A DNA stretch of 64,000 nucleotides. Source: a bacterium. GTDB taxonomy: Bacteria > RBG-13-66-14. The notes below the pieces were generated by a model that saw only the letters and a program-made list of their open reading frames with translations, searched no databases and was not told the origin of the DNA. Made by a program: the position numbers and the translations under genes. The DNA lies in NCBI GenBank assembly GCA_035528375.1, contig DATKYS010000137.1:10024-74023 (forward strand), written 5' to 3'. Of this stretch, positions 8,330 to 60,706 are shown piece by piece (within the stretch, counting starts at the first letter, position 1; each line of letters begins with the position of its first letter).

Positions 8330-10114
8330 ATGAAGAGACCGTTTAACGTGTTGCTATTCCTCGCGGTGCTCTGGGCGTCCGCCGCGCCCGCGGGGACGCA
8401 GTGGGTCGTCGTCGAGGCGTACAGCCGCGGCGATTTCAATCAGCTCGCCCCCCTGGACCTGGACGTCCTCTCGTACAACACCGCCGACGGGCTGCACGTC
8501 CTGGCCACGGACTCAGACCTCGAGGCCCTGGCCTCCCTGGGCTACCGCTGGCGGGTGGTGGACTACGATTTCTCCCAGGTGCGCTTCGGCTCCCGGGGCG
8601 GCGACTCCTTCTACGGCGGCTACCGCACCATCGCCGAGACCGAGGCCGAGCTTCAGGAGCTGGCCGCCGACCACCCCGACATCTTCGACCTTTTCAGCCT
8701 GGGCCACAGCTACCTGGACCGGGACATCTGGTGCATGAAGGTCAGCGACAACCCCGCGGTGGACGAGGCGGAGGGGGAAATCTTCATCCACGGCAACACC
8801 CACGCCCGGGAGATAATGACCCTCGAGATTCCCATGTATTTCCTCAACCGCATCGCCGAGGATTACTACACCGACCCGGAGCTGGCCTACCTCATTGACG
8901 CCCACGAGGTGTTCATCGTCCCCTCGATCAACCCCGACGGCCACGTCTGGGTGGAGGAGCATCACGACGGGAGCCCTTACGGCTGGCGGCGGAAGAACAT
9001 GCGGCCGCCAGACGGCGTGGACCTGAACCGCAACTACGGCTACATGTGGGGCTACGACGACCACGGCTCCAGCCCCAACCCCTGGTCGGATCTCTACCGC
9101 GGCACCTCTCCCTTCAGCGAACCGGAGACTATGGCGGTCCACGACTTCTTCCTGGACCGGGAGTTCCAGTTCGCCGTCAGCTACCACAGCTTCGGCGAGC
9201 TGATTCTGCTCCCCTGGGGGTACGTGGACGAACCGACCCCCGACGAGGCGACCCTCCGCGAGTACGGCAACGCGATGAACGCCGTCATCACCGGCCAGGG
9301 GCACGGCCCGTACGAGGTCGGGCGCCCCGGCGAAATCCTCTACCCGGTGAACGGAGATTTCGACGATTGGTCATACGGAGGGGATTATTTTCCCGATGGG
9401 ATCTCCCCCGATGATGCCTTCGAGGGTGGGGTGCCGGGCTTCTCCTTCGAGGTGAACACGGAGGAGGAGGGGGGCTTCGCGCCGCCGCCCGCGGAGATCG
9501 AGCCGACCTGCGAGCTGCACTGGCCTGTATTTCTGTGGATGCTGGAGAACGGGGCCGACGCGCCCGCGGGATCCCTCACCGACCTGGCGGCAACGCCGGT
9601 GGGCGACGGCGTGCGGATAAGCTTCAACGTCTGCGGCTGCGAAGAAATCTACTTCATCCTCATGCGCGAGGAGGCCGACGGATGGCGGCCCTTGAATGAG
9701 AGGCCCCTCGAGGGCTACACCGACGTGATGTACTACGACCTGGACGTGGAGCCCGGCGGGACCTACCGGTATCGGGTGGACGTGCTGGGCCGGTACGGCG
9801 ACCCGACCAGCTACGGCCCCGTGGAAATTACCCTGCCCCCGGACGGCGGGCGGGTGGTGGAGCTGCGCAACGCCTTCCCCAACCCGGCGGTTGGCGGCAC
9901 CAATATTTCCTTCTACATGCCCGAGGCCGGCGAGGTCGAGCTGGCGGTGTACGACGCCGCGGGCCGCCGGGTGGCCACTCTGGCCGACGGGTACGAGACC
10001 GCCGGCGAGCACGCGGTGTCCTGGGACGCCTCGGGTCACGCGCCGGGCGTCTACCTCTACCGCCTTACCGCGGATGAGGCCGCCCTCGTCCGCCGGTTCG
10101 TCGTCAGCCGGTAG
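8330..10114 (+). CDS. secreted M14 zinc carboxypeptidase with T9SS-type (FlgD-Ig-like) C-terminal domain
   Basis: Signal peptide. M14 motifs IHGNTHAREIMT, DLNRNYGY and SYHSFGELILLPWGY. The C-terminal FPNPAVGGTNISFYMPEAGEVELAVYDAAGRRVATL...GVYLYRL matches the Por/T9SS sorting-domain pattern. Confidence 0.85.
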   Translation: MKRPFNVLLFLAVLWASAAPAGTQWVVVEAYSRGDFNQLAPLDLDVLSYNTADGLHVLATDSDLEALASLGYRWRVVDYDFSQVRFGSRGGDSFYGGYRTIAETEAELQELAADHPDIFDLFSLGHSYLDRDIWCMKVSDNPAVDEAEGEIFIHGNTHAREIMTLEIPMYFLNRIAEDYYTDPELAYLIDAHEVFIVPSINPDGHVWVEEHHDGSPYGWRRKNMRPPDGVDLNRNYGYMWGYDDHGSSPNPWSDLYRGTSPFSEPETMAVHDFFLDREFQFAVSYHSFGELILLPWGYVDEPTPDEATLREYGNAMNAVITGQGHGPYEVGRPGEILYPVNGDFDDWSYGGDYFPDGISPDDAFEGGVPGFSFEVNTEEEGGFAPPPAEIEPTCELHWPVFLWMLENGADAPAGSLTDLAATPVGDGVRISFNVCGCEEIYFILMREEADGWRPLNERPLEGYTDVMYYDLDVEPGGTYRYRVDVLGRYGDPTSYGPVEITLPPDGGRVVELRNAFPNPAVGGTNISFYMPEAGEVELAVYDAAGRRVATLADGYETAGEHAVSWDASGHAPGVYLYRLTADEAALVRRFVVSR

Positions 10115-15330: not shown

Positions 15331-16194
15331 ATGCGCACCGTTTCAACGATAATCCTCGCGGCCTTTCTCGCCGCCGCCGCCCGGCCCTGCGCCGTCGAAA
15401 AAACGGCGCCGACGCCCTCCTCCCCCTACGTCCTCCTGGTCGCCGACGAGGAGGACGGGGTGGACTTCCCCCAGCACTTTTACACGGGCTACGAGACCCT
15501 CCTGGACGCGCTGGGCGTAGAGTACAATCTCTGGGACCACGACGACAGCGGCGAGCCGGCCACGGACGACCTGGCTCCCTACGACGTGGTCATCTGGGTG
15601 ACCTGCAATTCCTGCGGGCGCCCCGCCTCGGACCCCGTTTACGGCCACTCGGCCCTGTCCCCGGCCGAGGAGGAGACCCTGCGGCAGTGGCTGGCGACCG
15701 ACGGCGGTCGGGGGCTGATGCTCTCCGGGATGTGGATAGCCTGGAACTGCGTCGCCGACGCCGACTCCGAGGACCAGATGCCCAGCCCCTTCTTCGATTG
15801 GTTCGTCGGCCTGGACTACCCCCGCGACAACTTCACCGACTGGATCGAGGTGGACGACGACTGGTCCCTCGAACCCACGGATAGCGCCCGGCTCATCACC
15901 GAATCCTACGACATCAAGTGGGTGAGCGTAGAGAATTTCCCCGACCAGCTCGAGTCCGCCGTGGGGTGGACCGAGGCCCACTGGACCGACCCCGACGGCG
16001 TCCATCACCACAAGGCCGTCATCGCCAACGAGGGCTGCAACTGGCGCACGGTTCTGTTCGCCTGCCCCCTGGAGGCCGTTTCCGGGGAGGCCAACCGCCG
16101 GGACATCCTGGACCGGGTGCTGGTGTGGTTCATGGAGGGTGAGGAAAACGTGGTCGAGTCTAGCTGGGGGGAGATAAAGGCGCGGGAGTGGTAG
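15331..16194 (+). CDS. secreted alpha/beta protein (GATase1/ThuA-like pattern) ending in an SWGxIKA tail
   Basis: Signal peptide MRTVSTIILAAFLAAAARPCA. YVLLVADEED, LAPYDVVIWVT and LATDGGRGLMLSG alternate like a class-I amidotransferase-like fold. Ends VVESSWGEIKAREW*. Confidence 0.7.
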   Translation: MRTVSTIILAAFLAAAARPCAVEKTAPTPSSPYVLLVADEEDGVDFPQHFYTGYETLLDALGVEYNLWDHDDSGEPATDDLAPYDVVIWVTCNSCGRPASDPVYGHSALSPAEEETLRQWLATDGGRGLMLSGMWIAWNCVADADSEDQMPSPFFDWFVGLDYPRDNFTDWIEVDDDWSLEPTDSARLITESYDIKWVSVENFPDQLESAVGWTEAHWTDPDGVHHHKAVIANEGCNWRTVLFACPLEAVSGEANRRDILDRVLVWFMEGEENVVESSWGEIKAREW

Positions 16195-16198
16195 GCGC

Positions 16199-16660
16199 AT
16201 GGGGTACATCTTCACCATCGGTTACGAGGGCGCGTCCCTCGTTTCTTTTATCGGGACGCTCGAGCGCGAAGGTATAGCGACGCTCCTCGACGTCCGGCGC
16301 GACCCCTGGTCCCGCCGGCCCGAATTCCGAAAGCGCGGGCTGGAAGAGGCCCTGGCCGTCGCCGGCATCGCCTACCGCAACGAGCCCCGGCTCGGGGTGC
16401 CGAGGGACATCCGGGAGCGCTTCCGCGACGGAGCGGCTCCGGAAATTTTCGCCGCCTGGTACGCCGCCGAGGTGCTGGCCAAAAACACAGACCTGCTGCG
16501 GGAGCTGTCTGAATCAGTAAAGTCAACGCCGACCGCCCTTCTGTGCTACGAGGCCGACCCGGCCCGCTGCCACCGGGCTCTTCTGGCCCTGGAGCTCGCC
16601 CGCCTGACCGGCCTTCCCGTCCGCCACCTCGCCCCGGCGACCGCGGCGGAGCAGCCGTAA
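16199..16660 (+). CDS. DUF488 family protein
   Basis: IFTIGYEG...LLDVRR...RRPEF...LLCYEADPARCHRALLA matches the DUF488 pattern. Confidence 0.8.
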   Translation: MGYIFTIGYEGASLVSFIGTLEREGIATLLDVRRDPWSRRPEFRKRGLEEALAVAGIAYRNEPRLGVPRDIRERFRDGAAPEIFAAWYAAEVLAKNTDLLRELSESVKSTPTALLCYEADPARCHRALLALELARLTGLPVRHLAPATAAEQP

Positions 16661-16735: not shown

Positions 16736-18268
<1,533 letters not shown>

Positions 18269-22701: not shown

Positions 22702-23370
22702 TCAGCGGTAGAGGGCCTTTATCCACCCGAAGGTCGCATCGGCGGTGGTCAGCTCCACGCCCTCCAGGGTGGGAATCACGTGGGGGCCGAGGACGTCGTA
22801 GCCGTCCTGGTTGGGGTGGAGTCCATCGCCGTCGTGGTACTGCCGTGGCAGTTGCCCGTCGGCGTCGGCGATCCAGGTGTAGTAGTCCATGCACTCCCAG
22901 CCGTTGGTCGCGCACCAGCTACGGACCCAGGCGTCGAACTCGATGATGTCGTCGAGCTGGGCCTGGGTGTTGTCGCCGTAGCCCACGTCAATGGGCAGCG
23001 TGGTGGCCGGAACCGGCACCGCTCCGATACTCTCGCAGAAATCGGCGATGTCCTGCATGAAGCCCTTCATGGCCTCCAGATCGGTGTCCCCGCCCGTATC
23101 GAAGTAGGCCCCGCATTCCTTGAACGTGACGATGTCCGGACCATACGCCTGCACGTCGGGGAAAACCGACGACTTGTCCGCCTGGAATTCGATTACCTTG
23201 TGAAAATCGTAGTCGGGGAAGAACTCGTCGTAGGTGGGGTAGTGGAACGCCTCGGTGATGGAGGCGCCCAGGAAGACGACCACGGCGTCGTCAAGGTCGG
23301 TTGGTCCGGCTCCGGTGGTGGTGGTGCAGGAGACGCACAGTATGAGGGACAAGAGAAGAATGTTGCGCAT
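22702..23370 (-). CDS. SGNH/GDSL-type hydrolase lipoprotein ending in an FGWIKA tail
   Basis: Lipobox LILCVSC. Block I-like VVFLGASITE and block V DGDGLHPNQDGY. Ends ADATFGWIKALYR*. The longer track ORF 22702..24051 is an out-of-frame extension into gdhA. Confidence 0.8.
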   Translation of the reverse strand: MRNILLLSLILCVSCTTTTGAGPTDLDDAVVVFLGASITEAFHYPTYDEFFPDYDFHKVIEFQADKSSVFPDVQAYGPDIVTFKECGAYFDTGGDTDLEAMKGFMQDIADFCESIGAVPVPATTLPIDVGYGDNTQAQLDDIIEFDAWVRSWCATNGWECMDYYTWIADADGQLPRQYHDGDGLHPNQDGYDVLGPHVIPTLEGVELTTADATFGWIKALYR

Positions 23371-34991: not shown

Positions 34992-35837
34992 ATGGAACCA
35001 CTGAGCGTGTTCAACGTCGGTACGGTGGAGCTGGGTCGGGAACTGGTCTTCATCGCCGGCCCCTGCGTCATCGAGGACCGCGACTCGACCCTGCGGGTGG
35101 CGGAGCGTCTCGCCGACCTGGCGATGGAGCGCGGCTGCGGCCTCATTTTTAAATCCAGCTACGACAAGGCGAACCGGACCGGCGGGGAGAGCTTCCGCGG
35201 CCCAGGCCTGGAAGAGGGGTTGCGCGTGCTCGTCGAGGTCCGGGAGGCGATCGGCCTGCCGGTGCTCACCGACGTCCACTCCCCCGAGGAGGCCCGGGCG
35301 GCGGGGGAGGTCGTGGACTGCCTCCAGGTGCCGGCCTTCCTCTGCCGCCAGACCGACCTCGTCACCGCCTGCGCCCTTACGGGCAAACCGGTGAACGTGA
35401 AGAAAGGGCAGTTTCTCGCTCCCGACGACACACGGCACATCGTGGCCAAGCTGACGTCGGCGGGTTGCGACCGGATCATCCTCACCGAGCGCGGCTACGC
35501 CTTCGGCTATCATGACCTGGTGGTGGACCTGCGTTCGCTGGCGGTGATGCGGGAGATCGGAGCCCTGGTCTGCTACGACGCGACGCATTCGCTGCAGCAG
35601 CCGGGCGGGGCGTCGGGTCAGACCGGCGGCCTGCGCGCGTTCGTGCCGCCGCTGGCCCGGGCCGCCGCGGCCTTCGGCGTGGATGCTCTTTTCGCCGAGA
35701 CGCATCCCGACCCTCCCCGGGCGAAGTCCGATCCGGCCACCGTCTGGCCCCTGAACAGCTTCGGGCGGTTGATGGATCAGATATTGGCGGTGGACGGTCT
35801 GCGGCGCGAACTGGGAAAGCTGGGTCCCGATGTTTGA
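34992..35837 (+). CDS. kdsA: 3-deoxy-8-phosphooctulonate synthase
   Basis: FIAGPCVIE, FKSSYDKANR, VKKGQF and DATHSLQ motifs. Confidence 0.95.
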   Translation: MEPLSVFNVGTVELGRELVFIAGPCVIEDRDSTLRVAERLADLAMERGCGLIFKSSYDKANRTGGESFRGPGLEEGLRVLVEVREAIGLPVLTDVHSPEEARAAGEVVDCLQVPAFLCRQTDLVTACALTGKPVNVKKGQFLAPDDTRHIVAKLTSAGCDRIILTERGYAFGYHDLVVDLRSLAVMREIGALVCYDATHSLQQPGGASGQTGGLRAFVPPLARAAAAFGVDALFAETHPDPPRAKSDPATVWPLNSFGRLMDQILAVDGLRRELGKLGPDV

Positions 35838-36402
35838 AAAAATCTCCTTTCCCGGTGAGGCCCGGGTCGCCGACCTGGAAGAGCGCGCCCGGCGGGTGAG
35901 CCTTCTGGTCATGGACGTGGACGGCGTCCTCACCGCCGGCGGGATGTTCACCGACTCGGACGGCGTCCCGGTAAAAATCTTCGACGTCAAGGACGGGCTC
36001 GGGCTCTACCTCCTGGGCCGGGCGGGGATCAAGCGGGCCATCGTCACCGGCAAGTCCAGCCGGGCGGTGGAAAGGCGAGCGGAGGAGCTGGGGCTGGAGC
36101 ACTGCCTCCAGGGCGCGCTGGACAAGGGGCCGGCGGTGCGGGAGCTCCTGCGGGCGTCGGACTGCGCGGAAGACGGGCTCTGCTACATCGGAGACGACCT
36201 GAACGACCTGCCGGGCCTGGTCATCGCCGGGCTGGCCTGCTGTCCCGCCGACGCCGCCCCCGACGTGCGCGGGCGGGTCCACTACGTCTGCGCCGCCAAG
36301 GGGGGGCGGGGCGCCGTGCGCGAGGTCTGCGAGCTCATCCTGCGCGCCCGCGGCGAGTGGGACGCGATGGTCAATCAGTGGATAATGGGGGAATTTAAAT
36401 GA
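35830..36402 (+). CDS. kdsC: KDO 8-phosphate phosphatase (HAD family)
   Basis: LLVMDVDGVLTAG, TGKSS, and YIGDDLNDL. 8-nt overlap with kdsA. Confidence 0.85.
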   Translation: MFEKISFPGEARVADLEERARRVSLLVMDVDGVLTAGGMFTDSDGVPVKIFDVKDGLGLYLLGRAGIKRAIVTGKSSRAVERRAEELGLEHCLQGALDKGPAVRELLRASDCAEDGLCYIGDDLNDLPGLVIAGLACCPADAAPDVRGRVHYVCAAKGGRGAVREVCELILRARGEWDAMVNQWIMGEFK

Positions 36403-36497
36403 GTTGGTTGTTATTCCTCGATGAAAGCGGGCACGACCATAAAAAAACGCCCTATGAGGTGCGTGGTGGCAATGCGTTGAAAGATAGTAAGATATAG
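36399..36497 (+). pseudogene. 32-codon remnant resembling a DUF3800-protein N-terminus
   Basis: MSWLLFLDESGHDHKKTPYEVRGGNALKDSKI* starts with an ATGA overlap on the kdsC stop. It is followed by about 270 bp of low-G+C sequence with no long ORF. Confidence 0.35.
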
Positions 36498-36765
36498 CCT
36501 CTTATCGATAGTGCCGATTACGCCGTGATGAAGTTGCCGTCGAAGGTGTAAGGAAACAGGTTTATGGAATCGTGTATGTGCCTGATCCTTATACTCCAAG
36601 GAGCTAAAAAAAGTAGCGGTAACGCCCTCGGGGCCCCTGCTTTTACACAGTAACCCCTCGGCCGAACCGCCATCAACAGTCTAGCCCTTTTTGTACGTTT
36701 TTGTCAAGTTTTTGTTAAGGTTTATTTACGGCTAAAATGAGGATTTACACGACGGTGAGCATCCC

Positions 36766-37761
36766 ATGAAAACGGACGCGGAAATCACGGCCCGGGGGCG
36801 CGAGGTGCTGGCCGTCGAGGGCGAGGCGCTGGCGCGCGTGGCGGAGCGTCTGGACGAGAGTTTCGCCGCGGCGGTACGCATCCTGCACGGCTGCACCGGG
36901 CGGGTCATCGTGGCCGGGATGGGCAAGAGCGGGCACGTCGCCGACAAGATAGCCTCCACCCTCTCTTCGACCGGCACGCCGGCGTTCTTCCTCCACCCCG
37001 GCGAGGCGGCCCACGGCGACCTGGGGATGGTCACCCCGGGTGACGTGGTCCTGGCGGTCTCCAACTCGGGGCGGACCCGGGAGCTCCTGGCCATCGTGCC
37101 GAACCTGAAGAAGCTGGGCGCGCGGCTGGTGGCCCTGGTCGGAACCCCAGACTCCCCCCTGGCCCGCGAGGCCGAGGTGGCCCTCGACGCGAGCGTGGAG
37201 CGGGAGGCGTGCCCGTTGAACCTGGCGCCCACCTCCTCGACGACTGCGGCGCTGGCCTTGGGCGATGCCCTGGCCGTGGCGCTGATGGAGCTGCGTCAGT
37301 TCAAGGCCGACGACTTCGCCCGCTTCCACCCGGGGGGTCTCTTGGGCGACCGCCTGCTCCTACTCACAGTGGACGAGGTTCTCATTACGGGCGCTCTATT
37401 CCCCAGCGTGGGGGTCGGGGCCGATTTCGCCGAGGTGGTCGGGGAGCTGGCCGGCAAGCGGCAGGGGATAACCGCGGTGGTCTGTGGCGGAGGAGGGCTG
37501 GCCGGCGTCATCTCCAACGGCGACGTGCTGCGTATTTTAGCCCAGAAACGTGACACCGCGCACATCTGCGCCGAGACGATGATGACCCATAATCCCAAGA
37601 CGATCCCTCCCGGGACGAGCGCCGAAAATGCCGTGGCGGTCATGGAGACCCACAACATCACCGCCCTGGTCGTGGTGGACGATGAGCATCGGCCCCTGGG
37701 GCTGGTACACCTCCACGACCTGCTGGGCCGGAAGACTTTCTGGCAGCCGCCCGACGGTTAG
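36766..37761 (+). CDS. kdsD: arabinose-5-phosphate isomerase (SIS + tandem CBS)
   Basis: GRVIVAGMGKSGHV, VLAVSNSGRT, and CBS pairs at the C-terminus. Confidence 0.9.
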   Translation: MKTDAEITARGREVLAVEGEALARVAERLDESFAAAVRILHGCTGRVIVAGMGKSGHVADKIASTLSSTGTPAFFLHPGEAAHGDLGMVTPGDVVLAVSNSGRTRELLAIVPNLKKLGARLVALVGTPDSPLAREAEVALDASVEREACPLNLAPTSSTTAALALGDALAVALMELRQFKADDFARFHPGGLLGDRLLLLTVDEVLITGALFPSVGVGADFAEVVGELAGKRQGITAVVCGGGGLAGVISNGDVLRILAQKRDTAHICAETMMTHNPKTIPPGTSAENAVAVMETHNITALVVVDDEHRPLGLVHLHDLLGRKTFWQPPDG

Positions 37762-42682: not shown

Positions 42683-43390
42683 TCAATAAACGATGGAAAG
42701 GGAAACGCCGGCGCCTGGATTTCCGCACGAGTCGGTGTAGAAGCGGGGAGCGAGCTCCACCGAAAACCCCTTCCCCGCTTCCCCGGTCCCGGTGAGCTCA
42801 TCCCCGGTCTCGAAGTCGGCGAGGTGGGCGTCCACGTAAGCGTCCAGCATGGAGTACACCACGACCAGGGCGGCCAGCCAGATGTGCGTCTCGTAGTCCA
42901 CCCGGTAATTTTTATAAAGATCCAGGTGGTAGTCGCGCAGGGCGAAGACGTCGGTCAAATCCGGGCTCATCCTATCGTCGGGGATATCGAAGCCTTCGAA
43001 CTGACGGCGCTCGTAGGCCGCGGCGTCGGCGTAGTAAATGATGCCGTACACGGTGAGCGCCTCGAGGCCGAAGAGGACGACCCCCTTCAGGTACTCCTCG
43101 TTGTAGAACTGTCCCCAGCCGGCGATGACCCCCGAGCGCCAGAGCGCCTCCACGGGGTCCGGCCGCCAGGGCGCCGGGGACTCGGCGGTCTCGGTCGCCG
43201 TCGCCGATTCGGTGATTTCAGTCCCCGGTTCGGACTCGACCGTTTCAGCCGCCGGTGCGGACTCGACGGAATCCGACTCCCCGTCGGTCGGGGGCGTTTC
43301 GCCGTCGGGAACGGGGGGCTCTTCGGCCGCCAGAACCGAGAGGGGCGGCCCCGCCAGGAGGAGAAGGATCAAATGGAACGGACGGGTCAA
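42683..43390 (-). CDS. exported protein, DUF5683-like
   Basis: Signal peptide, acidic Pro/Glu/Thr-rich linker, then WRSGVIAGWGQFYNEEYLKGVVLFGLEAL resembling the PGxGQxYN core of DUF5683. Only 24 nt separate it from gyrB. Confidence 0.5.
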   Translation of the reverse strand: MTRPFHLILLLLAGPPLSVLAAEEPPVPDGETPPTDGESDSVESAPAAETVESEPGTEITESATATETAESPAPWRPDPVEALWRSGVIAGWGQFYNEEYLKGVVLFGLEALTVYGIIYYADAAAYERRQFEGFDIPDDRMSPDLTDVFALRDYHLDLYKNYRVDYETHIWLAALVVVYSMLDAYVDAHLADFETGDELTGTGEAGKGFSVELAPRFYTDSCGNPGAGVSLSIVY

Positions 43391-46830: not shown

Positions 46831-48138
46831 ATGCGCTTGTTCCGGGCGGAAATTCTCTTTTTTGTATTCTGCGGCGCGGCGCTGGGGGCTACCGTCCAAA
46901 GGGTGGACTACGACCCACAGAGCCGCACGGTGCGCGTCGCAGTCCAGTCCGATACCGAGCCCACGTACAAGGATTTCGAGCTCCCCGACCCCGACCGCGT
47001 GGTCCTGGACCTGGAAAACGCATCCTTCCCCGCGAACAAATTCGAGGCCACCGTGGGCGACGGACTGGTGGCCGGTCTCCGCGCCGCCCAGAACTCCGTT
47101 GATCCCGCCGTGACCCGGGTCGTGGTGGACCTGGAGGCCGGCGTTTCGGGCTACACGGTGGGCATTACCGGTTCGGCGCCCTCCTGGTCGGTCAACCTCA
47201 CCGTCATCCCCGCCGGGAGCGTCGTCGCGGTGGAGACCGAGGCTAGGCTCATCGAGGAGGCGACCCTGGAGCCGCACGTGCTCCCCGGGGAGGAGCCGCC
47301 CCCGAAGGAGGCCCTCGTTTTCGCCGCCAGCCCCACCCCGGTGCGCGAATCGCCGGCCTCCAACGCCCGCCGGGTGAGCGAGGGGCTGGCCGGGGAGCGG
47401 GTCGAGGCCGTGGCCGAGCTGGGTGGGTGGCGCCTGGTCATCCTCACCGAGCAGGACGGCCTGGCCGGGTGGGTGCCCTCCTCTTCCCTCGTCACGGAGG
47501 GGAAGGTGGAGCGCGACGACGGCTCCGTGCGCGCGGTGCCCAATCCCCGCACCCCTCCCCCCGGCACCCCCCAGACCCCCCAGCCGAACCGGGCCCCGCT
47601 GCGCACCGAGGCCACCGATGGCTCGGCCATCATCGCCCACCTCTCCGCCGACACATCTTTCCGGGCGTACCGCCGCCGGGAGGGCTGGTATTTCGTTCAG
47701 CTCGAGGACGGCCGCGCCGGGTGGGTCGCCGCGCGGTACGTCGAGCTCGAGACCGCCGGTCCCGGCGAGGCCTGGCGCCAGGCCGTCGTGGCCACCGCAG
47801 AGAGTTACCTGGGCTCGCCCTACGTCTGGGGCGGCACCTCGAGCTCGGGCTTCGACTGCTCCGGCCTCGTGTGGCGCGTCTACAAGCAGAACGGTATCGA
47901 GGTCCCCCGCACCGCCGGCCCCCAGTACCGCGAGGGGCGGCGCGTCACCCGCGACGTACTCCTGCCCGGAGACCTGGTCTTCTTCTCCACCTACAGCGCC
48001 GGACCCAGCCACGTAGGCATCTACGCCGGGGACGACCGCTTCATTCAGGCCGACTCCTCCGACGGCGTCCGCTACTCCGACCTGGACGGCGTGTACTGGA
48101 ATGACCACATCTACGGCTACTCCCGCTGGACGCCGTGA
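46831..48138 (+). CDS. cell-wall hydrolase: AMIN + two SH3b + NlpC/P60
   Basis: AMIN-like VRVAVQSDTEPTYKDFELPDPDRVVLDLENASF. SH3b segments (GWRLVILTEQDGLAGWVP, EGWYFVQLEDGRAGWVA). NlpC/P60 motifs YVWGGTSSSGFDCSGLV and SHVGIY. Confidence 0.87.
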   Translation: MRLFRAEILFFVFCGAALGATVQRVDYDPQSRTVRVAVQSDTEPTYKDFELPDPDRVVLDLENASFPANKFEATVGDGLVAGLRAAQNSVDPAVTRVVVDLEAGVSGYTVGITGSAPSWSVNLTVIPAGSVVAVETEARLIEEATLEPHVLPGEEPPPKEALVFAASPTPVRESPASNARRVSEGLAGERVEAVAELGGWRLVILTEQDGLAGWVPSSSLVTEGKVERDDGSVRAVPNPRTPPPGTPQTPQPNRAPLRTEATDGSAIIAHLSADTSFRAYRRREGWYFVQLEDGRAGWVAARYVELETAGPGEAWRQAVVATAESYLGSPYVWGGTSSSGFDCSGLVWRVYKQNGIEVPRTAGPQYREGRRVTRDVLLPGDLVFFSTYSAGPSHVGIYAGDDRFIQADSSDGVRYSDLDGVYWNDHIYGYSRWTP

Positions 48139-49682
48139 GCGAGCTCGAACTAAAGGAACGTCATCCGATCTACCGCTTCGCCGGCTGGGCCGGCCTGGCC
48201 CTTTTGTGCATCCTGGTCGCCTTCACCTTCACCTACTTCGCCTACACCCGCCGGTTCATGATCGGGCTCTTGGCCACGGCGGCCCTGATAGCGCCCGCGG
48301 CGCTTTTTCTCGTCTTCGCCCACGAGAAGGCGAGGCTGTGGTGGGCGAGGATTCTGGTCGCCCTCATGCCCCTCGGCCTCCTTTTCCGGTTCGGCAGCGA
48401 CGAGTTCTACTTCACGCCCGCGCTCTTCATGTTCCTCATCAACCTCTTCGTGATCGTCCTCGACAAGCTGCAGGGATACGAGGGGGAGAAGCCTAAACCC
48501 ACGCCGCTCTCCAAGCCGCTGGGTATATGGCTGGTCACGATCATCTTCTCCACCCTCGTCAGCCGGTTCGCCGTCCACGGGGTGCTCGAGCTCATCCCCC
48601 TCCTCCTGGCCTCCACGGTCTACGTTTACGTCCGCCTCTACATCCGCGACGAGCGGGAGCTCGAGAGCCTGATCAAAGCCTTCACCGTGGGGGCCTGTTA
48701 CTCCCTCGGCTCGGGGTACTTCGAGCTCATCAAGGGCGTGACCTACACGGCGGACCTCTCCCACGAGAGCCAGTCCATATCGATGTACGCGGACGTGTTC
48801 CGGGTTGACGGGAGCTTCTACTCACCCAACTCCTTCGTCTACTTCAGCGCGTCCTGCGCCCTTTTGTACAGCGTCATGTTCTTCTACTGGCGGAACTGGC
48901 GCTGGAAAGTATTCTCACTCGTCCTGGCCCTTTCCGGGGCGGTCCTCTCCATCTTCACCTACTCCCGCGGAGGCGTCTTCGGTCTGGCCGCCGGCATCCT
49001 GTTTCTCACCCTGGCGCTGCCGCCTCCCAAAAAGCGCCTGAAGCTCTACCTGGTGGTTGTCCCCCTCGCGCTGGCAGTGGCCCTCTGCGTCACGATACCG
49101 GTCCTGGGGTCCAGGGGGGCGGGGCTCGTTGACCCCCAGGAGCTTCAGCAGGTCGTGGTTAGCACCGAGTCGGCGGGGCAGGTGGCGGACATCACCTCAT
49201 CGCTCGCCAGGCCGATAATGTGGTACCGGTCCTTCGAGTTCTGGATGAATAGTCCGGTATGGGGAATCGGCCACTCGAACTTCGAGGGGTATTTCAACCC
49301 GGTCATGCCGTATATGTTCCGCATGTTCGGGTTTTACCCCAGGCACCCGCACAACATCTTCATCTACGCTCTTCTTTCGACGGGGCTCATCGGGCTCGGG
49401 TGCCTCATCACCATCGTCGTCAAGCTGAGCAGGTACACGTTGGGCGGCATACGGCACCGCGGGACGTTCATCGGCTACCTTTCCATCGCCCTCGGCAGCA
49501 TCTGGCTTCTCACCTTCATCCAGGGGATGGTGGACGCGATTTTCGTTCTTCCCCTGACCATACCCATAGCCGGTTCCTTCTTCTTATTCCTCGCTTCGAG
49601 CACCTTCGTGATGGACGCGGTGAAGGAGCGTCTCGCGCTGGAAAAAACTACTTCCCGGGAAACGCCCGCAATCGGACCGTAG
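48135..49682 (+). CDS. O-antigen ligase / Wzy_C-family polytopic membrane protein
   Basis: About 12 TM helices. YSRGGVFGLAAGILFL and PHNIFIYALLSTGLIG are typical of the O-antigen ligase domain. GTGA overlap with the upstream stop. Confidence 0.75.
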   Translation: MSELELKERHPIYRFAGWAGLALLCILVAFTFTYFAYTRRFMIGLLATAALIAPAALFLVFAHEKARLWWARILVALMPLGLLFRFGSDEFYFTPALFMFLINLFVIVLDKLQGYEGEKPKPTPLSKPLGIWLVTIIFSTLVSRFAVHGVLELIPLLLASTVYVYVRLYIRDERELESLIKAFTVGACYSLGSGYFELIKGVTYTADLSHESQSISMYADVFRVDGSFYSPNSFVYFSASCALLYSVMFFYWRNWRWKVFSLVLALSGAVLSIFTYSRGGVFGLAAGILFLTLALPPPKKRLKLYLVVVPLALAVALCVTIPVLGSRGAGLVDPQELQQVVVSTESAGQVADITSSLARPIMWYRSFEFWMNSPVWGIGHSNFEGYFNPVMPYMFRMFGFYPRHPHNIFIYALLSTGLIGLGCLITIVVKLSRYTLGGIRHRGTFIGYLSIALGSIWLLTFIQGMVDAIFVLPLTIPIAGSFFLFLASSTFVMDAVKERLALEKTTSRETPAIGP

Positions 49683-56757: not shown

Positions 56758-58218
56758 TTGGACATACCGAACCAGACGAGCGTGGTGGAGGCGGTGAAGG
56801 GGCAGTTGTCCCTTTTAGCCGACCCTCGCCGCTGGCGTATCGTTAACGACCGGCGAGCCGGCGCCGACGCCCGGCTGGCCGGCGCCGATGTAGAGACCCT
56901 CTGGCACCACCCGCCCCAGACACATTTACTGGTGAAGTTGAGTCCGGCGGCCGGCGACCGGGGGTTCACCTTCTACCTCCCCCTCCTCCTCACCCCGGAA
57001 AAGCCCCCCGCGGGCGGGGTGCCTCTGACCGTCGGCGACGGCGACTGGTTCGCCTCCGACCCCTTCCTCTCGCCACCGGAGCTGATGGCGCTCCTGAAGA
57101 GCGCCGGTGTCGGCAACGCCGGCCGGTTGCGGCTCGATTCGCCCTCCGTCGGACCATTCGCTATGGCGACCCGCAACCCCCTCTTCAAACCCGCGGGGTG
57201 CAAGATCGAACCGCTGCTGGAGCGGGAGGGGGAGCCCAGCACGAATTACCTCTACCGCCTGGACGTGCGCGGCGCTGGCGGAGAGCACGCTCTGGTGGCC
57301 AAGCGCTACCTCCCCCGGGAGGAGCCCGGGCGCGGCGACCGGGAGTGGGAGCTCGCCACGGCGCTTTCCAGCGAGCTCGTGCCGCGGCCCGTCGGCCGTC
57401 TCGCGGATACACGCTCCGGCAACACCCTGGTCGGTTTCTACGAGTTCGTCCCCGGCGTCGAGGTCGGGCTGGTGCTGTGGAAGCTCTACGGGCTCCTGGG
57501 CGTCGTGCCGACGGGGTCGGTGCTGGCGCGCGTCCGGGTGGTCTTCGCTAAGAGCCTGCGCACCCTCGCCTCCTTCCACGACCAGATCGCGCAGCGGATG
57601 AAGTACGACGCCGGGCGGGGGCCGGTCAACGAGGGGGTCTTCCACCGAGCCGAGGAGGACTTGCGCGCCCTGCGCGGGTATCGGGTCAACTCGAAGGCCT
57701 ACCGCGCCATCATCGCCGGCCTGGTGTCGAGCCTGGAGGGGGGTGGTTCCGTATTCCACGGCCCCCGGCCCGTCCACGGGGACCTGATGTGGCGCCAGGT
57801 CGTCTGGCGCATGGAGCTGGAAAGGGGGAAGGAGCTCGACCTCCTGACCCTGCCCCTGGAGCCGCCCGAGGAGATGCCCGGCCGGCTGACCGTCATGGAC
57901 GCCGAGAGCTGGCGGGCGGGGTATCTGGAGGAGGACCTGGCCGGCCTCGCCGCCGCGGACAACTTTATGCTCGCCCTCCAGGAGCGGGACCGATTCGCCC
58001 CGGTAATTTTCGCCGCCCTCTGGCACGCCGCCTACCAGGCCAACGACTGGGACGAGGGCGCGGCGCACCGGTCACTGCGTCCACTCCTCTCCCTCATCCG
58101 TCTGCGCCACCTCCACGACGCCGCCTACTACGCCGGGGCCAAGGGCGAGAATTCCGTAAAGACCGCCGAGTACGACCACTACGTGCGGGTGAGCCTCCAC
58201 CTCGCCGGTCTGGTTTAA
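56758..58218 (+). CDS. protein-kinase-fold phosphotransferase, maltokinase (Mak/Pep2)-like
   Basis: The N-terminal RRWRIVND...FYLPLLL resembles the maltokinase cap. PVHGDLMWRQV matches the HGDLHxxQ catalytic loop. VMDAESW...EEDLAGL matches DFEGEP...DVAGM. Divergent, so the family call is tentative. Confidence 0.45.
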   Translation: MDIPNQTSVVEAVKGQLSLLADPRRWRIVNDRRAGADARLAGADVETLWHHPPQTHLLVKLSPAAGDRGFTFYLPLLLTPEKPPAGGVPLTVGDGDWFASDPFLSPPELMALLKSAGVGNAGRLRLDSPSVGPFAMATRNPLFKPAGCKIEPLLEREGEPSTNYLYRLDVRGAGGEHALVAKRYLPREEPGRGDREWELATALSSELVPRPVGRLADTRSGNTLVGFYEFVPGVEVGLVLWKLYGLLGVVPTGSVLARVRVVFAKSLRTLASFHDQIAQRMKYDAGRGPVNEGVFHRAEEDLRALRGYRVNSKAYRAIIAGLVSSLEGGGSVFHGPRPVHGDLMWRQVVWRMELERGKELDLLTLPLEPPEEMPGRLTVMDAESWRAGYLEEDLAGLAAADNFMLALQERDRFAPVIFAALWHAAYQANDWDEGAAHRSLRPLLSLIRLRHLHDAAYYAGAKGENSVKTAEYDHYVRVSLHLAGLV

Positions 58219-58235
58219 TTGTTTCGTTTCAATAA

Positions 58236-58265
58236 AGAAGGGCGGGTCGACCGCCCTTTGTTTTA
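58236..58265. terminator. bidirectional terminator between convergent genes
   Basis: AAGAAGGGCGG-GTCGA-CCGCCCTTTGTTTT. Confidence 0.7.
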
Positions 58266-58278
58266 CATTGCACAGGGT

Positions 58279-58989
58279 CTAGTCGAAAGCCGCTTTTATC
58301 ACTCCCCAGGAGGTTTCCTTCACGTCGGAGTGGGCGGCCAGGTAGCAGGCGGCGTTGGCCATGATGAGAAACCCGTCCCCGGTCCAGCCTTGCGGATTAT
58401 TACTAGTGTAATCAAGACCGACGACTGTATTGCCGGCATTTACGGCTATGCCGGGGTAGAGGGGGAAATCGGCTATCTCATGGGCCCCGGGACGGAGCTC
58501 AAGCAGGATATGGTAATACACATCGCTTAAATGGGATACCCCCTCAAATATCGGGTGCTCGGGCTCGAGGATGTTCAGATCCTGGTAATCGTAGACATAA
58601 AATTCACCGGGTATAGGTCCGTAAGGAGCGTACTCATCATCCAGCCAGCGACCGCCGATGCCCCAACCCCCGGGGTCATAAAAGAGCATCTCAGAGATAC
58701 ATACCACACAGCCGCCGCCGTCCACATAGTCGGCCAGGTTATCGCCGAACTCATCCGGTTCCTCTGTATATGTCCCTCCTATGAAGAGCGCATCGAAGTT
58801 GCGCATAAACTCAAGAGGCGGCGTGAAATCCATGATATTATAAAAGTAAACAACCTCGAAGCGCGGGTCGTCACGCACGTACTCAACCACTTCCGACCAG
58901 TATTGGTAAAAATCCCCCACCAAGAACACGGCGTCCAGGCCGGCGAGAGCGACCAGCGGCAGCACGAGCATCAATATGACGGTTTTCAT
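58279..58989 (-). CDS. secreted alpha/beta protein (GATase1/ThuA-like pattern) ending in an SWGxIKA tail, low G+C
   Basis: Signal peptide MKTVILMLVLPLVALAG. VFLVGD, NFDALFIGGT and YVDGGGCVVCIS parallel the protein at 15331..16194. Ends VKETSWGVIKAAFD*. Confidence 0.7.
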   Translation of the reverse strand: MKTVILMLVLPLVALAGLDAVFLVGDFYQYWSEVVEYVRDDPRFEVVYFYNIMDFTPPLEFMRNFDALFIGGTYTEEPDEFGDNLADYVDGGGCVVCISEMLFYDPGGWGIGGRWLDDEYAPYGPIPGEFYVYDYQDLNILEPEHPIFEGVSHLSDVYYHILLELRPGAHEIADFPLYPGIAVNAGNTVVGLDYTSNNPQGWTGDGFLIMANAACYLAAHSDVKETSWGVIKAAFD

Positions 58990-59072
58990 GACTCCTCCGT
59001 TTCACTAAAGCACCCAGCGCGGGATGGTATGGATATCCTCCTCGTAAAGCTCTCCCAATGTGCCCCAGTCGT

Positions 59073-59696
59073 CTATGAGCATCTCCAGGAGCAGACGGCC
59101 TCGTGCAGTTCCTGCGGCCAGAGGCTGCGCTTGAGCCAGTCCCAGTGGCAGTGGTCGGTCGTGTCTCCGGGCCAGTAATCTCCGTTGACCGGCCCTTGGG
59201 GGTGGGGGAAGTTGTTGAAGACGTCGGCGTATTCAGGCGGTAAGTGGTCTTGAAATATGATTAAGCCTTGCTCGGTCCTGTCCCACCAGTCCACGGGCCG
59301 CCTTATGGCGTTGACCGTCTTAGCCCATGCGATGTGGGGAGTGGGGGGGATAGCGTAGATCGCAAGTTCTTCTTTTGTGATTATCACGTTGTAAACGTAC
59401 TTGATGAGCGGGTCTTGGTTGGTCAGAAGGATTGGCTCGTGTCCTTTCTTACCCAGCCAGTCGTTCGGGTCCCACTGGTATCTTTCTGGGCGGTAGGTGG
59501 TGTGCGTCCCCGGAGGGCCTTCAACTTTACTGAGTGAATAGCGCCAAACCTGCTCGATATCCTCCGAGCCTATCAGCCTCTTGATTACGGTGCATTTGAT
59601 GAAGGTGGGGGGACCCTGGGGAAAGAGGTCGTTGTTGACCCGGACCTTGGGCCGGATACGGTATTCCGCAGGTCGGAGAATCTCTTCCGGGCTCAC
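59073..59696 (-). CDS. hypothetical Trp/Pro-rich protein, low G+C; the 3' end may be frameshifted (possible true end at 59005)
   Basis: GTG start. No motif I recognise. An alternative frame continues ...LLLEMLIDDWGTLGELYEEDIHTIPRWVL* to 15 nt before the next gene's ATG. Confidence 0.5.
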   Translation of the reverse strand: MSPEEILRPAEYRIRPKVRVNNDLFPQGPPTFIKCTVIKRLIGSEDIEQVWRYSLSKVEGPPGTHTTYRPERYQWDPNDWLGKKGHEPILLTNQDPLIKYVYNVIITKEELAIYAIPPTPHIAWAKTVNAIRRPVDWWDRTEQGLIIFQDHLPPEYADVFNNFPHPQGPVNGDYWPGDTTDHCHWDWLKRSLWPQELHEAVCSWRCS

Positions 59697-59791
59697 AATC
59701 CTCCTTTAACCTCTACCTTAAGTTTATCCTTTCTTTATCAGAAAGTCAATTTGAAATCAGGGCGACGTTCCCGTTTTTTTCGTCGTGTGTC

Positions 59792-60706
59792 CTACGCCGA
59801 GCCGCGGCGGCGGAAGCCGTAGCCCATCACCTCGTGCACGTCGGTGATGACCACGAAGGCCTTCGAATCCGCCACCTTCACCAGCCGCTTGAGCCGCTCC
59901 ACCTCCCGCTTCTCTATCACGCAGTAGATGACGCTCTTGTCCACGTCGGTGTACATGCCCCGGCCCTTCGTGAGGGTGGCCCCCCGGTTGAGCCCCGCCA
60001 TTATCTGGTAGTACACGATGTCGGGGACGTCGGTGACGATGATGGCCGCCCGGGCGTAGCTGAAGCCGTCCAGCACGACGTCTATCACCTTTATCGAGAC
60101 GCCCAGGGCCAGGAATCCGTAGAGGATGAGGTCCACCTCGCCGAAAATCGCGCCGGCGAAGGCGATTATGGCCGTGTCGAAGAAGAGGAAGCTGACCCCG
60201 GTGGAGAGCCCGGTGTAGCGGGAGAGGATGCGGGCGGGGATGTCGGTGCCGCCGGTGGAGCCTCCGCCCCGGAGGACCAGCCCCAGGCCGGCCCCCAGGA
60301 GCACCGCCCCGTACACGAGGGCCATGACGATGTTATCGGTGAGGACGGGGATGCGCAGAATCTCGCCGTACAGGTCGGCGAAAATGGAGTAGAGAACGAT
60401 GCCGAAGATGGTGCGCAGGCCGAAGCTGCCGCCGAGGAACTTCAGACCGACGAGGAACAACGGGATGTTGAATACGAGCATCGTCACGCCCACCGGGACG
60501 TGCCAGAGGAAGTGCAGCACCGTGGCCAGTCCGCCGATGCCCCCCGGGGCGATGCGGTAGGGGACCAGGAACACCACGAGACCGAAGCTCCCCACGGCGG
60601 CGCCCACCAGGATCAAGGCGTAGTCCCGGAGCGCCGACTTCCAGTCGGGCAACAGGAGCTTGGGGAACCGCTGTTTGAGCGAGGAGAGGAAGAATCGCTT
60701 GCCCAT
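59792..60706 (-). CDS. YitT-family membrane protein (DUF2179 C-terminal domain)
   Basis: GGAGG-N5-ATG. LVPYRIAPGGIGGLATVLH. C-terminal DUF2179-like VVITDVHEVMGYGF. Confidence 0.85.
   Translation of the reverse strand: MGKRFFLSSLKQRFPKLLLPDWKSALRDYALILVGAAVGSFGLVVFLVPYRIAPGGIGGLATVLHFLWHVPVGVTMLVFNIPLFLVGLKFLGGSFGLRTIFGIVLYSIFADLYGEILRIPVLTDNIVMALVYGAVLLGAGLGLVLRGGGSTGGTDIPARILSRYTGLSTGVSFLFFDTAIIAFAGAIFGEVDLILYGFLALGVSIKVIDVVLDGFSYARAAIIVTDVPDIVYYQIMAGLNRGATLTKGRGMYTDVDKSVIYCVIEKREVERLKRLVKVADSKAFVVITDVHEVMGYGFRRRGSA

Follow-up and report, generated by a model that had tools for sequence, protein, structure and literature searches.

Exported proteins in a number of described systems carry a sorting signal at their C-terminus. 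These include the small tripartite signals LPXTG, PEP-CTERM, GlyGly-CTERM, PGF-CTERM and MYXO-CTERM, which are paired with sortase, exosortase, rhombosortase, archaeosortase and myxosortase, respectively; sortase and exosortase signals require a membrane-spanning helix. The C-terminal domain of the T9SS (type IX secretion system) is a folded module of 70-90 residues, a seven-stranded immunoglobulin-like beta-sandwich with sequence motifs A-E (PMC4804311, PMC10202324). Three genes in a stretch of 64,000 nucleotides of bacterial contig DATKYS010000137.1 (assembly GCA_035528375.1, positions 10,024 to 74,023; GTDB lineage RBG-13-66-14), referred to below as the window, encode exported proteins that end in one and the same short peptide, here called the tag. 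Comparative evidence indicates that this peptide is most likely a widespread, uncatalogued C-terminal protein-sorting signal. The tail matches nothing in Pfam or NCBIfam, whether whole proteins (E up to 1) or tail-only peptides (E up to 10) are searched; a PDB sequence search with a tail profile returned only noise and no chain carrying the tag, and full-text searches of open-access papers and preprints turned up neither the tail strings nor a signal of this description. The genes and their tag copies, in window coordinates, are as follows.

15331..16194, plus strand: tag gene 1, encoding a 287-residue exported protein (protein 1) that belongs to no Pfam or NCBIfam family
16150..16191, plus strand: tag copy 1, VVESSWGEIKAREW-COOH, with the stop codon at 16192-16194
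58279..58989, minus strand: tag gene 2, encoding a 236-residue exported protein (protein 2) with no Pfam or NCBIfam match
58282..58323, minus strand: tag copy 2, VKETSWGVIKAAFD-COOH, the C-terminal end of tag gene 2
22702..23370, minus strand: tag gene 3, encoding a 222-residue exported, possibly lipidated GDSL/SGNH hydrolase (protein 3)
22705..22746, minus strand: tag copy 3, TADATFGWIKALYR-COOH, the C-terminal end of tag gene 3

A preliminary description of this stretch had reported that the three open reading frames (ORFs) end in a common decapeptide, and the shared tail is present as claimed: among six-frame ORFs of at least 60 residues in the window, the pattern [WFY]G.[IVL]K[AS] occurs three times, always nine residues from the stop codon and never internally. 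The conserved element is, however, longer than a decapeptide, at around 15 residues, since positions -6 to -2 before the glycine are also conserved. Its distance from the C-terminus, said to be fixed, is usually 10 residues counted from the [ST] position, but sometimes 9-13, and in rare cases a further 12-14 residues follow; these polar extensions past the motif are found in some NHL proteins. The N-terminal Sec or lipoprotein leaders that had been assigned to all three are signal-peptide-like in each case, but the leader of protein 3 (MRNILLLSLILCVSC) ends in the cysteine-containing LILCVSC, which may be a lipobox although it does not fit the classical form.

The cargo proteins had been described as unrelated, and pairwise BLASTP and profile comparison indeed reveal no mutual similarity besides the tail; when protein 2 is compared with the profile of the protein 1 family, the tail alone aligns. 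Protein 3, whose C-terminus has also been written as ADATFGWIKALYR, is the sole member of the three to fall into a Pfam family (Lipase_GDSL_2, 3.1e-11), in agreement with its earlier assignment. The GATase1/ThuA-like fold that had been proposed for the other two is weakly suggested for protein 1, the AlphaFold2 (AF2) model of which (predicted local distance difference test, pLDDT, 79.6) resembles class-I glutamine-amidotransferase/ThuA-like alpha/beta folds in Foldseek with template modelling (TM) scores of 0.45-0.48.

Across the loci compared, the tag follows the consensus V-x-[PE]-x-[ST]-[WL]-G-x-[IV]-K-[AS]-L-[FY]-[RK]-COOH. Numbered from the invariant glycine (position 0, 100%), it comprises a valine at -6 (44-80%), proline or glutamate at -4/-5, serine or threonine at -2 (98-100%) and tryptophan or leucine at -1, followed by isoleucine or valine at +2 (95-97%), lysine at +3 (94-100%, otherwise arginine), alanine at +4 (87-91%), leucine at +5, phenylalanine or tyrosine at +6, and arginine or lysine at +7, immediately before the stop codon. 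The lysine is replaced by arginine in about 6% of tags, and the last residue is basic in about 80-97%. Two flavours can be distinguished. One, with tryptophan, reads ...TWGxIKALYR and often follows a cysteine-rich C-x-x-C-x-x-P-V-E; the other, with leucine, reads ...P[AT]SLGRVKALF[RK]. The clade to which the window belongs uses the tryptophan flavour with a degenerate end, which is variable and can be acidic (REW, AFD, LE).

Upstream of the tryptophan flavour there is an excess of cysteine at -10 to -13, and positions -9 to -5 are taken by P-[TV]-P-[VT]-E. In metagenome loci L025-L144 such tags are often preceded by a cysteine-rich stretch, for example GCPPCDAPVTGASWGSIKALYR, which may be a longer version of the tag or else the terminal part of a small shared domain. 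In one lipoprotein family the tag is repeated in tandem, with 2-4 copies per protein (P0136, P0138, P0174, P0175, P0145). P0136 has four copies about 18 residues apart and P0138 has two, while P0145 consists of a duplicated unit of domain and tag, hence its one internal copy.

The preliminary description had made its interpretation depend on enrichment of the motif at true C-termini over shuffled proteins, on co-occurrence with signal peptides and on conservation in orthologues, and each of these was borne out. The tag closes 127 of the 895 called genes, as against a mean of 0.39 and a maximum of 2 when each protein is shuffled 200 times, and the internal rate of the motif is 9.5e-5 per position. 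In the window together with 23 related genome loci, a looser motif yields 39 copies at 9-11 residues from the stop codon and 21 elsewhere; ten of the latter lie 24-25 residues from the stop, and seven of these ten are the unrelated sigma-70 region-4 string LGTVKARIHRGR. A DNA pattern for [ST]-W-G-x-[IV]-K-A-L-[FY]-R-stop, with an information content of about 38 bits, matched at least 120 metagenome contigs. Of the 160 copies of the loose motif among the matches listed on these contigs, 146 stand exactly 10 residues ahead of the stop, three stand 11-13 residues ahead of it, and 11 are internal. They also hold additional tag copies which lie outside the search pattern and adjoin the hits, with up to four tag genes on a single contig (L075, L125). 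As most of the analysed loci were fetched for containing a tag, the counts in the window, three tags in about 55 genes, provide the unbiased sample.

The orthologues of protein 1, which reach down to about 40% identity, retain the tag in 14 out of 14 cases. None of them departs from G280 and K283, while the last three residues drift; distant homologues end in V-E-P-[AT]-S-L-G-R-[VI]-K-A-L-[FY]-[RH]. The tag is likewise retained in P0164 and P0165, homologues of protein 2, and in the protein 3 orthologues of L001-L003. Synonymous codons at the tag positions differ freely among lineages, which points to selection on the peptide and not on a nucleotide element. A DNA or RNA element at the gene ends, considered as a cause of the conservation, was ruled out on the same ground.

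Protein 1 orthologues are found in several metagenome-assembled genomes (MAGs) of Candidatus Coatesbacteria, the nearest being that of Coatesbacteria RBG_13_66_14 (88% identity), and two MAGs that bear the label Zixibacteria likewise have the family. The tag is found in lipopolysaccharide (LPS)-making diderms of the Coatesbacteria type and in many uncultured relatives. In the window itself, genes for 3-deoxy-D-manno-octulosonic acid (Kdo) and LPS synthesis lie at 34992-37761 and 48135-49682, encoding a KdsA-like protein (DAHP_synth_1), a HAD/KdsC-like protein, a KdsD-like protein with SIS and CBS domains, and a Wzy_C O-antigen ligase; from the KdsA-, KdsC- and KdsD-like genes and the ligase it follows that the organism makes Kdo-containing LPS and hence is a diderm. 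Tag ORFs with ordinary-looking secreted cargo are also present on six IMG/VR contigs classified as viral (L147-L152).

The range of cargo is broad. When 1.84 billion representative proteins were searched with a profile, 170 reached E <=1e-3; of the 146 that were new, about 120 have the tag at their end, most of them secreted NHL propellers of about 300 residues. Across the loci the tag is found on at least 46 BLAST cargo clusters, which include NHL, Beta_helix, CBM96/DNRLRE, CBM_4_9, pullulanase-X25/Big_5, GDSL and GATase1-like proteins, along with many small families outside Pfam. The carriers are small, with a median of 273 residues. All complete carriers in Coatesbacteria-type loci have a signal-peptide-like hydrophobic leader, and an N-terminal hydrophobic region is present in 88% of carriers against 31% of other ORFs, by a crude hydrophobicity measure; about 8% of carriers have a lipobox-like sequence. 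A short flexible linker joins the tag to its many Sec-exported carriers, which are unrelated to one another and in some cases have lipobox-like leaders.

In six loci (L009, L019-L023), at about 8.9-10.9 kb in each, two tag genes lie head to tail. One encodes a protein of about 260 residues, from a family remotely homologous to that of protein 1 (hhalign probability 88.6%), and the other a protein 1 paralogue. Together they resemble a cassette of tagged proteins that has been duplicated.

The key comparative indication of function comes from the modules that take the place of the tag on homologous cargo. The preliminary description had set the tag apart from the LPXTG and PEP-CTERM classes and from the T9SS-type domain of about 80 residues on an M14 peptidase in the same window, a contrast which hidden Markov model (HMM) searches show to be correct. 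Type A T9SS domains correspond to TIGR04183 and PF18962, with FlgD_ig (PF13860) in Fibrobacteres-Chlorobi-Bacteroidetes (FCB) lineages other than Bacteroidota. The domain in question lies at the following position.

9875..10111, plus strand: T9SS type A/FlgD_ig C-terminal domain of an M14 carboxypeptidase (gene 8330-10114), detected by TIGR04183 (40 bits against a cut-off of 23), PF18962 and PF13860

In an Edwardsbacteria orthologue of protein 1 (L018, 686 residues), a T9SS type A/FlgD_ig domain stands at the place of the tag (TIGR04183, 30.5 bits against the same cut-off of 23). A right-handed beta-helix cargo ends in the tag in L113, L127, L110, L112 and L087 but in FlgD_ig in L105. Among 120 homologues of a tagged NHL propeller, 14 have the tag and about 20 have FlgD_ig or Por_Secre_tail; other members have ends that are PEP-CTERM-like (P0179), PGF/PEF-CTERM-like (P0190, P0217) or dockerin-like (P0224, P0251, P0272), or have none. 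The FlgD_ig, Por_Secre_tail and TIGR04183 modules were confirmed by HMM, whereas the PEP-CTERM-, PGF/PEF-CTERM- and dockerin-like ends were recognized by eye. The tag therefore holds the position of the T9SS C-terminal domain on homologous cargo in three families. A C-terminal add-on that trades places with known sorting or anchoring modules when homologous exported proteins are compared is the classical signature of a sorting signal, and this choice of anchor, with the rest of the comparative evidence, supports the interpretation of the tail as a candidate sorting tag that had been put forward at the outset.

The two kinds of C-terminus coexist. Of 18 loci holding a T9SS-type domain, 16 have the tag on the same contig, yet the two never occur on one protein. 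FlgD_ig or T9SS-type proteins on tag contigs are mostly about 450-1250 residues long (L045, L060, L066, L074, L075, L080, L082, L105, L122, L134 and window 8330-10114), and it may be that the tag and the T9SS-type domain divide the cargo by size.

Structure prediction places the tag outside the cargo fold. In the AF2 model of protein 1, residues 272-287 have pLDDT values below 50 and lie apart from the folded domain; in that of the NHL propeller P0286 the core reaches a pLDDT of about 98, while the linker and tag, also outside the fold, are at about 61-65. A short helix is predicted at the tag with low confidence in both cargos (residues 279-285 of protein 1 and 329-336 of P0286), and in neither is there a beta-sandwich. 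In these models, then, the tag appears as a flexible appendage and not as part of the cargo. It was also considered whether the tag might be the closing strand of the NHL propeller. This was ruled out, as AF2 leaves it outside a propeller modelled at about 98 pLDDT, and tail-less NHL homologues that stop right after the last blade oppose the same idea.

How the tag compares with small tripartite C-terminal sorting signals can be judged by the seven criteria set out by Haft (bioRxiv 10.1101/2023.06.07.544157). The tag occupies a consistent position, with 39 of 39 C-terminal cases in the genome loci at 9-11 residues from the stop and the listed metagenome matches mostly at exactly 10 (146 of 160, as above); it is present in multiple copies per genome, on unrelated cargo, with at least three near-invariant residues and on proteins with signal peptides. 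What it lacks is the membrane helix, for only 4-7 residues follow the glycine, and the whole tag of about 15 residues has lysine and arginine within it, and also the cluster of 2-5 basic residues, in place of which most lineages have a single terminal arginine or lysine. The tag thus shares with LPXTG, PEP-CTERM, GlyGly-CTERM, PGF-CTERM and MYXO-CTERM signals a C-terminal location, copy number, a signature, a signal peptide and unrelated cargo, but has neither their hydrophobic membrane-spanning segment nor their arginine cluster. Without such a segment, the motif could not be presented to an intramembrane sorting enzyme in the usual way.

Other C-terminal devices are similar in part. Like dockerins (which pair with cohesins), SLH domains, LysM domains, GW repeats and choline-binding repeats, the tag is a C-terminal add-on of secreted proteins which can occur in tandem; unlike these modules, which are folded domains or repeats, span 20-80 residues and have known ligands, it is a single short linear peptide. 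The tails give no match in Pfam to PF00404, the duplicated Ca-binding F-hand repeats of dockerins, and have no Asp/Asn-rich loops. The closest analogy for its proposed mode of working is found in eukaryotes, where the peroxisomal targeting signal PTS1 (-SKL) and KDEL are C-terminal peptides read by receptors. These too are short, unstructured and C-terminal on folded, unrelated proteins, but at 3-4 residues they are shorter than the tag and serve other compartments in another domain of life, so that the likeness is one of analogy only.

The beta-signal of outer-membrane proteins, read by the beta-barrel assembly machinery (BAM), is likewise C-terminal and has a polar residue, a glycine and alternating hydrophobic residues. 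It forms the last strand of a barrel and ends in an aromatic residue, whereas the tag ends in arginine or lysine, has the opposite hydrophobic register and is borne by soluble globular cargo, with alpha/beta, propeller or beta-helix folds and not beta-barrels. An end resembling the beta-signal is present elsewhere in the window, on an exported DUF5683 protein (42683-43390, minus strand) that terminates in ...GVSLSIVY, with alternating hydrophobic residues and a terminal aromatic; it is unrelated to the tag. On these comparisons the architecture of the tag fits no known bacterial class; in functional kind it would be a C-terminal sorting or anchoring signal.

The favoured account, which comes near to an even chance, is that the tail is a stand-alone linear docking or sorting tag of about 15 residues, bound by a receptor, probably associated with the outer membrane, that would retain the cargo or pass it on to a translocon. 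The cargo would be exported and would fold in the periplasm with the tail exposed. A dedicated receptor in the envelope, in all likelihood one associated with the outer membrane, would then bind the exposed tail without a covalent link and would either hold the cargo at the cell surface or deliver it to an outer-membrane translocon. The tag would work in the manner of a miniature dockerin- or PTS1-type signal and not of a sortase or exosortase signal. Non-covalent recognition is favoured by the replacement of lysine with arginine in some tags, by the tolerance of extensions past the motif and by the tandem copies; lysine-specific covalent chemistry at the tag is unlikely. The strict invariance of the glycine and the conservation of Ser/Thr, alanine and Lys/Arg argue for a protein receptor over simple lipid binding.

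Several points weigh against this account. Clustering of 895 genes, all against all, together with Pfam scans of those neighbours that recur, brought to light no receptor, translocon or processing enzyme in the neighbourhoods of tag genes, in keeping with the earlier remark that no sorting enzyme is visible. The recurrent neighbours are housekeeping genes, TPR proteins and T9SS-domain cargo, the neighbourhoods are not conserved, and in stretches of up to 20 kb no candidate sortase, protease or barrel was seen to recur across unrelated loci. Tandem copies are confined to one family. The abundance of the tag per genome can be estimated only roughly, since the loci were selected for it. Finally, there could be a different reason for the strong conservation of 15 residues, for example a part in turnover or in contact with a membrane.

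The main rival explanation, unlikely but deserving serious attention, is that the tail is a minimal type IX signal, read by the same T9SS through a PorV-like shuttle and the SprA translocon, and mimics the last strand of the T9SS domain (motif E). The coexistence and replacement described above speak for such a signal: T9SS-type domains are found in the same genome, on the M14 peptidase, and on tag contigs (16 loci), and the tag alternates with the domain on homologous cargo in three families. Like the type A domain, the tag lies at the extreme C-terminus of unrelated Sec-exported cargo and ends in two hydrophobic residues and a C-terminal arginine or lysine, with a basic residue a few positions upstream. 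Furthermore, a review reports that GFP is secreted by the T9SS when it carries no more than the final 22 residues of the HBP35 domain, and that the last 13, with conserved lysines, are required (PMC10202324). Set against this, no sequence relationship is detectable. TIGR04183, PF18962 and PF13860 all miss the tag, whereas identical searches pick up the domain in L018, in L105 and on the M14 peptidase of the window. In right-aligned profiles, the tag and the last 10 residues of 34 co-resident T9SS domains agree only at the terminal Arg/Lys and at positions -3 and -4 (score -2.6, permutation p=0.12). The tag has no motif D (GxY), tolerates C-terminal extensions and tandem copies, and is about 15 residues long and unstructured or helical in AF2 models, in contrast to the 70-90-residue fold of the type A domain. 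A descent of the tag from the last strand of a T9SS domain, as a relic, was considered separately and is unsupported by the same profile comparison.

It is improbable, but has some appeal, that the tail is an interfacial amphipathic helix which binds the outer or inner membrane, or LPS, with no protein receptor and so holds exported proteins there, in the way of the membrane-targeting sequences of MinD and FtsA. AF2 places a short helix at the tag in both modelled cargos; on a helical wheel, as read from the consensus, W/L, I/V, L and F/Y fall on one face with lysine and arginine flanking it, and tandem copies would raise avidity. The confidence of that helix is low, however (pLDDT below 50 and about 61-65), and its two turns are short for stable binding. 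Known lipid-binding helices need amphipathicity alone, and the tag is much stricter than this, with an invariant glycine and near-invariant Lys/Arg, alanine and Ser/Thr. One of the tails in the window, SWGEIKAREW, is neither amphipathic nor charged overall.

A cleaved signal seems distinctly doubtful. Here a transpeptidase of the periplasm or outer membrane would cut within the motif, for example after the glycine, and link the cargo to LPS, peptidoglycan or lipid, or else the lysine would itself be the attachment point, as in Braun's lipoprotein. In favour of such a signal, the tag has most of the hallmarks listed by Haft (position, copies, at least three near-invariant residues, signal peptides and diverse cargo). 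Moreover, the invariant glycine after Ser/Thr resembles the small residues of the PorU cleavage site, T/E/D/N | G/A/S (PMC10202324). But the tag lacks a transmembrane helix that could bring the site before an intramembrane enzyme, tandem and internal copies would be unexpected, and no candidate enzyme lies near any of the tag genes examined; the presence of arginine for lysine in about 6% of tags rules out an obligatory linkage through lysine.

Least probable is a role in degradation or quality control, in which a periplasmic protease with a PDZ domain (HtrA/DegP/DegS or Tsp type) would recognise the tail. C-terminal peptides are established ligands of PDZ domains, and an HtrA-type protease gene (16736-18268) lies 540 nt downstream of tag gene 1 in an arrangement kept in L001-L005. 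But HtrA is a universal housekeeping gene whose adjacency is lost in distant orthologues (L024). A PDZ domain would read the last three residues, and within the tag it is these that vary most in the clade of the window (REW, AFD, LYR, LE, AM, GGL). Extensions past the motif are tolerated, and a degron on a considerable proportion of stable-looking extracellular enzymes, alternating with secretion domains on homologues, is hard to rationalise.

The surroundings of the tag genes in the window have some features of their own. A DUF488 gene (16199-16660) starts 5 nt past the stop codon of tag gene 1 and is followed by the gene for the HtrA/DegP-type protease (Trypsin_2 and PDZ domains); the order tag gene 1-DUF488-HtrA is kept in the close relatives L001-L005 and is absent beside distant orthologues. 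Tag gene 2 lies in an islet of low GC content (0.53-0.57 at 58200-59800, against 0.65-0.70 on either side), together with an ORF that has no Pfam match (59073-59696, minus strand). The GC content at third codon positions (GC3) of tag gene 2 is 0.66, compared with about 0.9 elsewhere, and the islet may be a recently acquired segment. A hairpin and T-run resembling an intrinsic terminator, read by eye, are located 3' of this gene. For the conserved isoleucine of the tag, all three genes use ATA, a rare codon (16168-16170, 58303-58305 and 22726-22728). Among loci of the Coatesbacteria type, 44% of the isoleucine codons in tags are ATA against 16% in gene bodies (n=27, not independent), and there is no such bias at the tag isoleucine in the metagenome set.

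If the tag is indeed a docking or sorting signal, a linear peptide of about 15 residues would send a sizeable share of the exported proteome to the cell surface or into the medium, judging from the three tags among about 55 genes in the window. Hundreds of tagged proteins now annotated as hypothetical would then make up a surface or secreted sub-proteome in phyla that have no cultured members. C-terminal sorting signals such as LPXTG, PEP-CTERM and the T9SS domains have repeatedly revealed new envelope machines, and also predict which proteins are displayed or secreted. The tag may quite possibly, if not yet probably, be the address label of an unrecognised sorting pathway in diderm, uncultured bacteria of the FCB type, Coatesbacteria and others, with an undescribed receptor or translocon acting in parallel to T9SS-type domains. 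Sorting beyond Sec in these lineages would become testable, with the tag as bait for profiling, receptor screens and pull-downs, and, should a receptor be found, so short a tag would be useful as an engineering handle.

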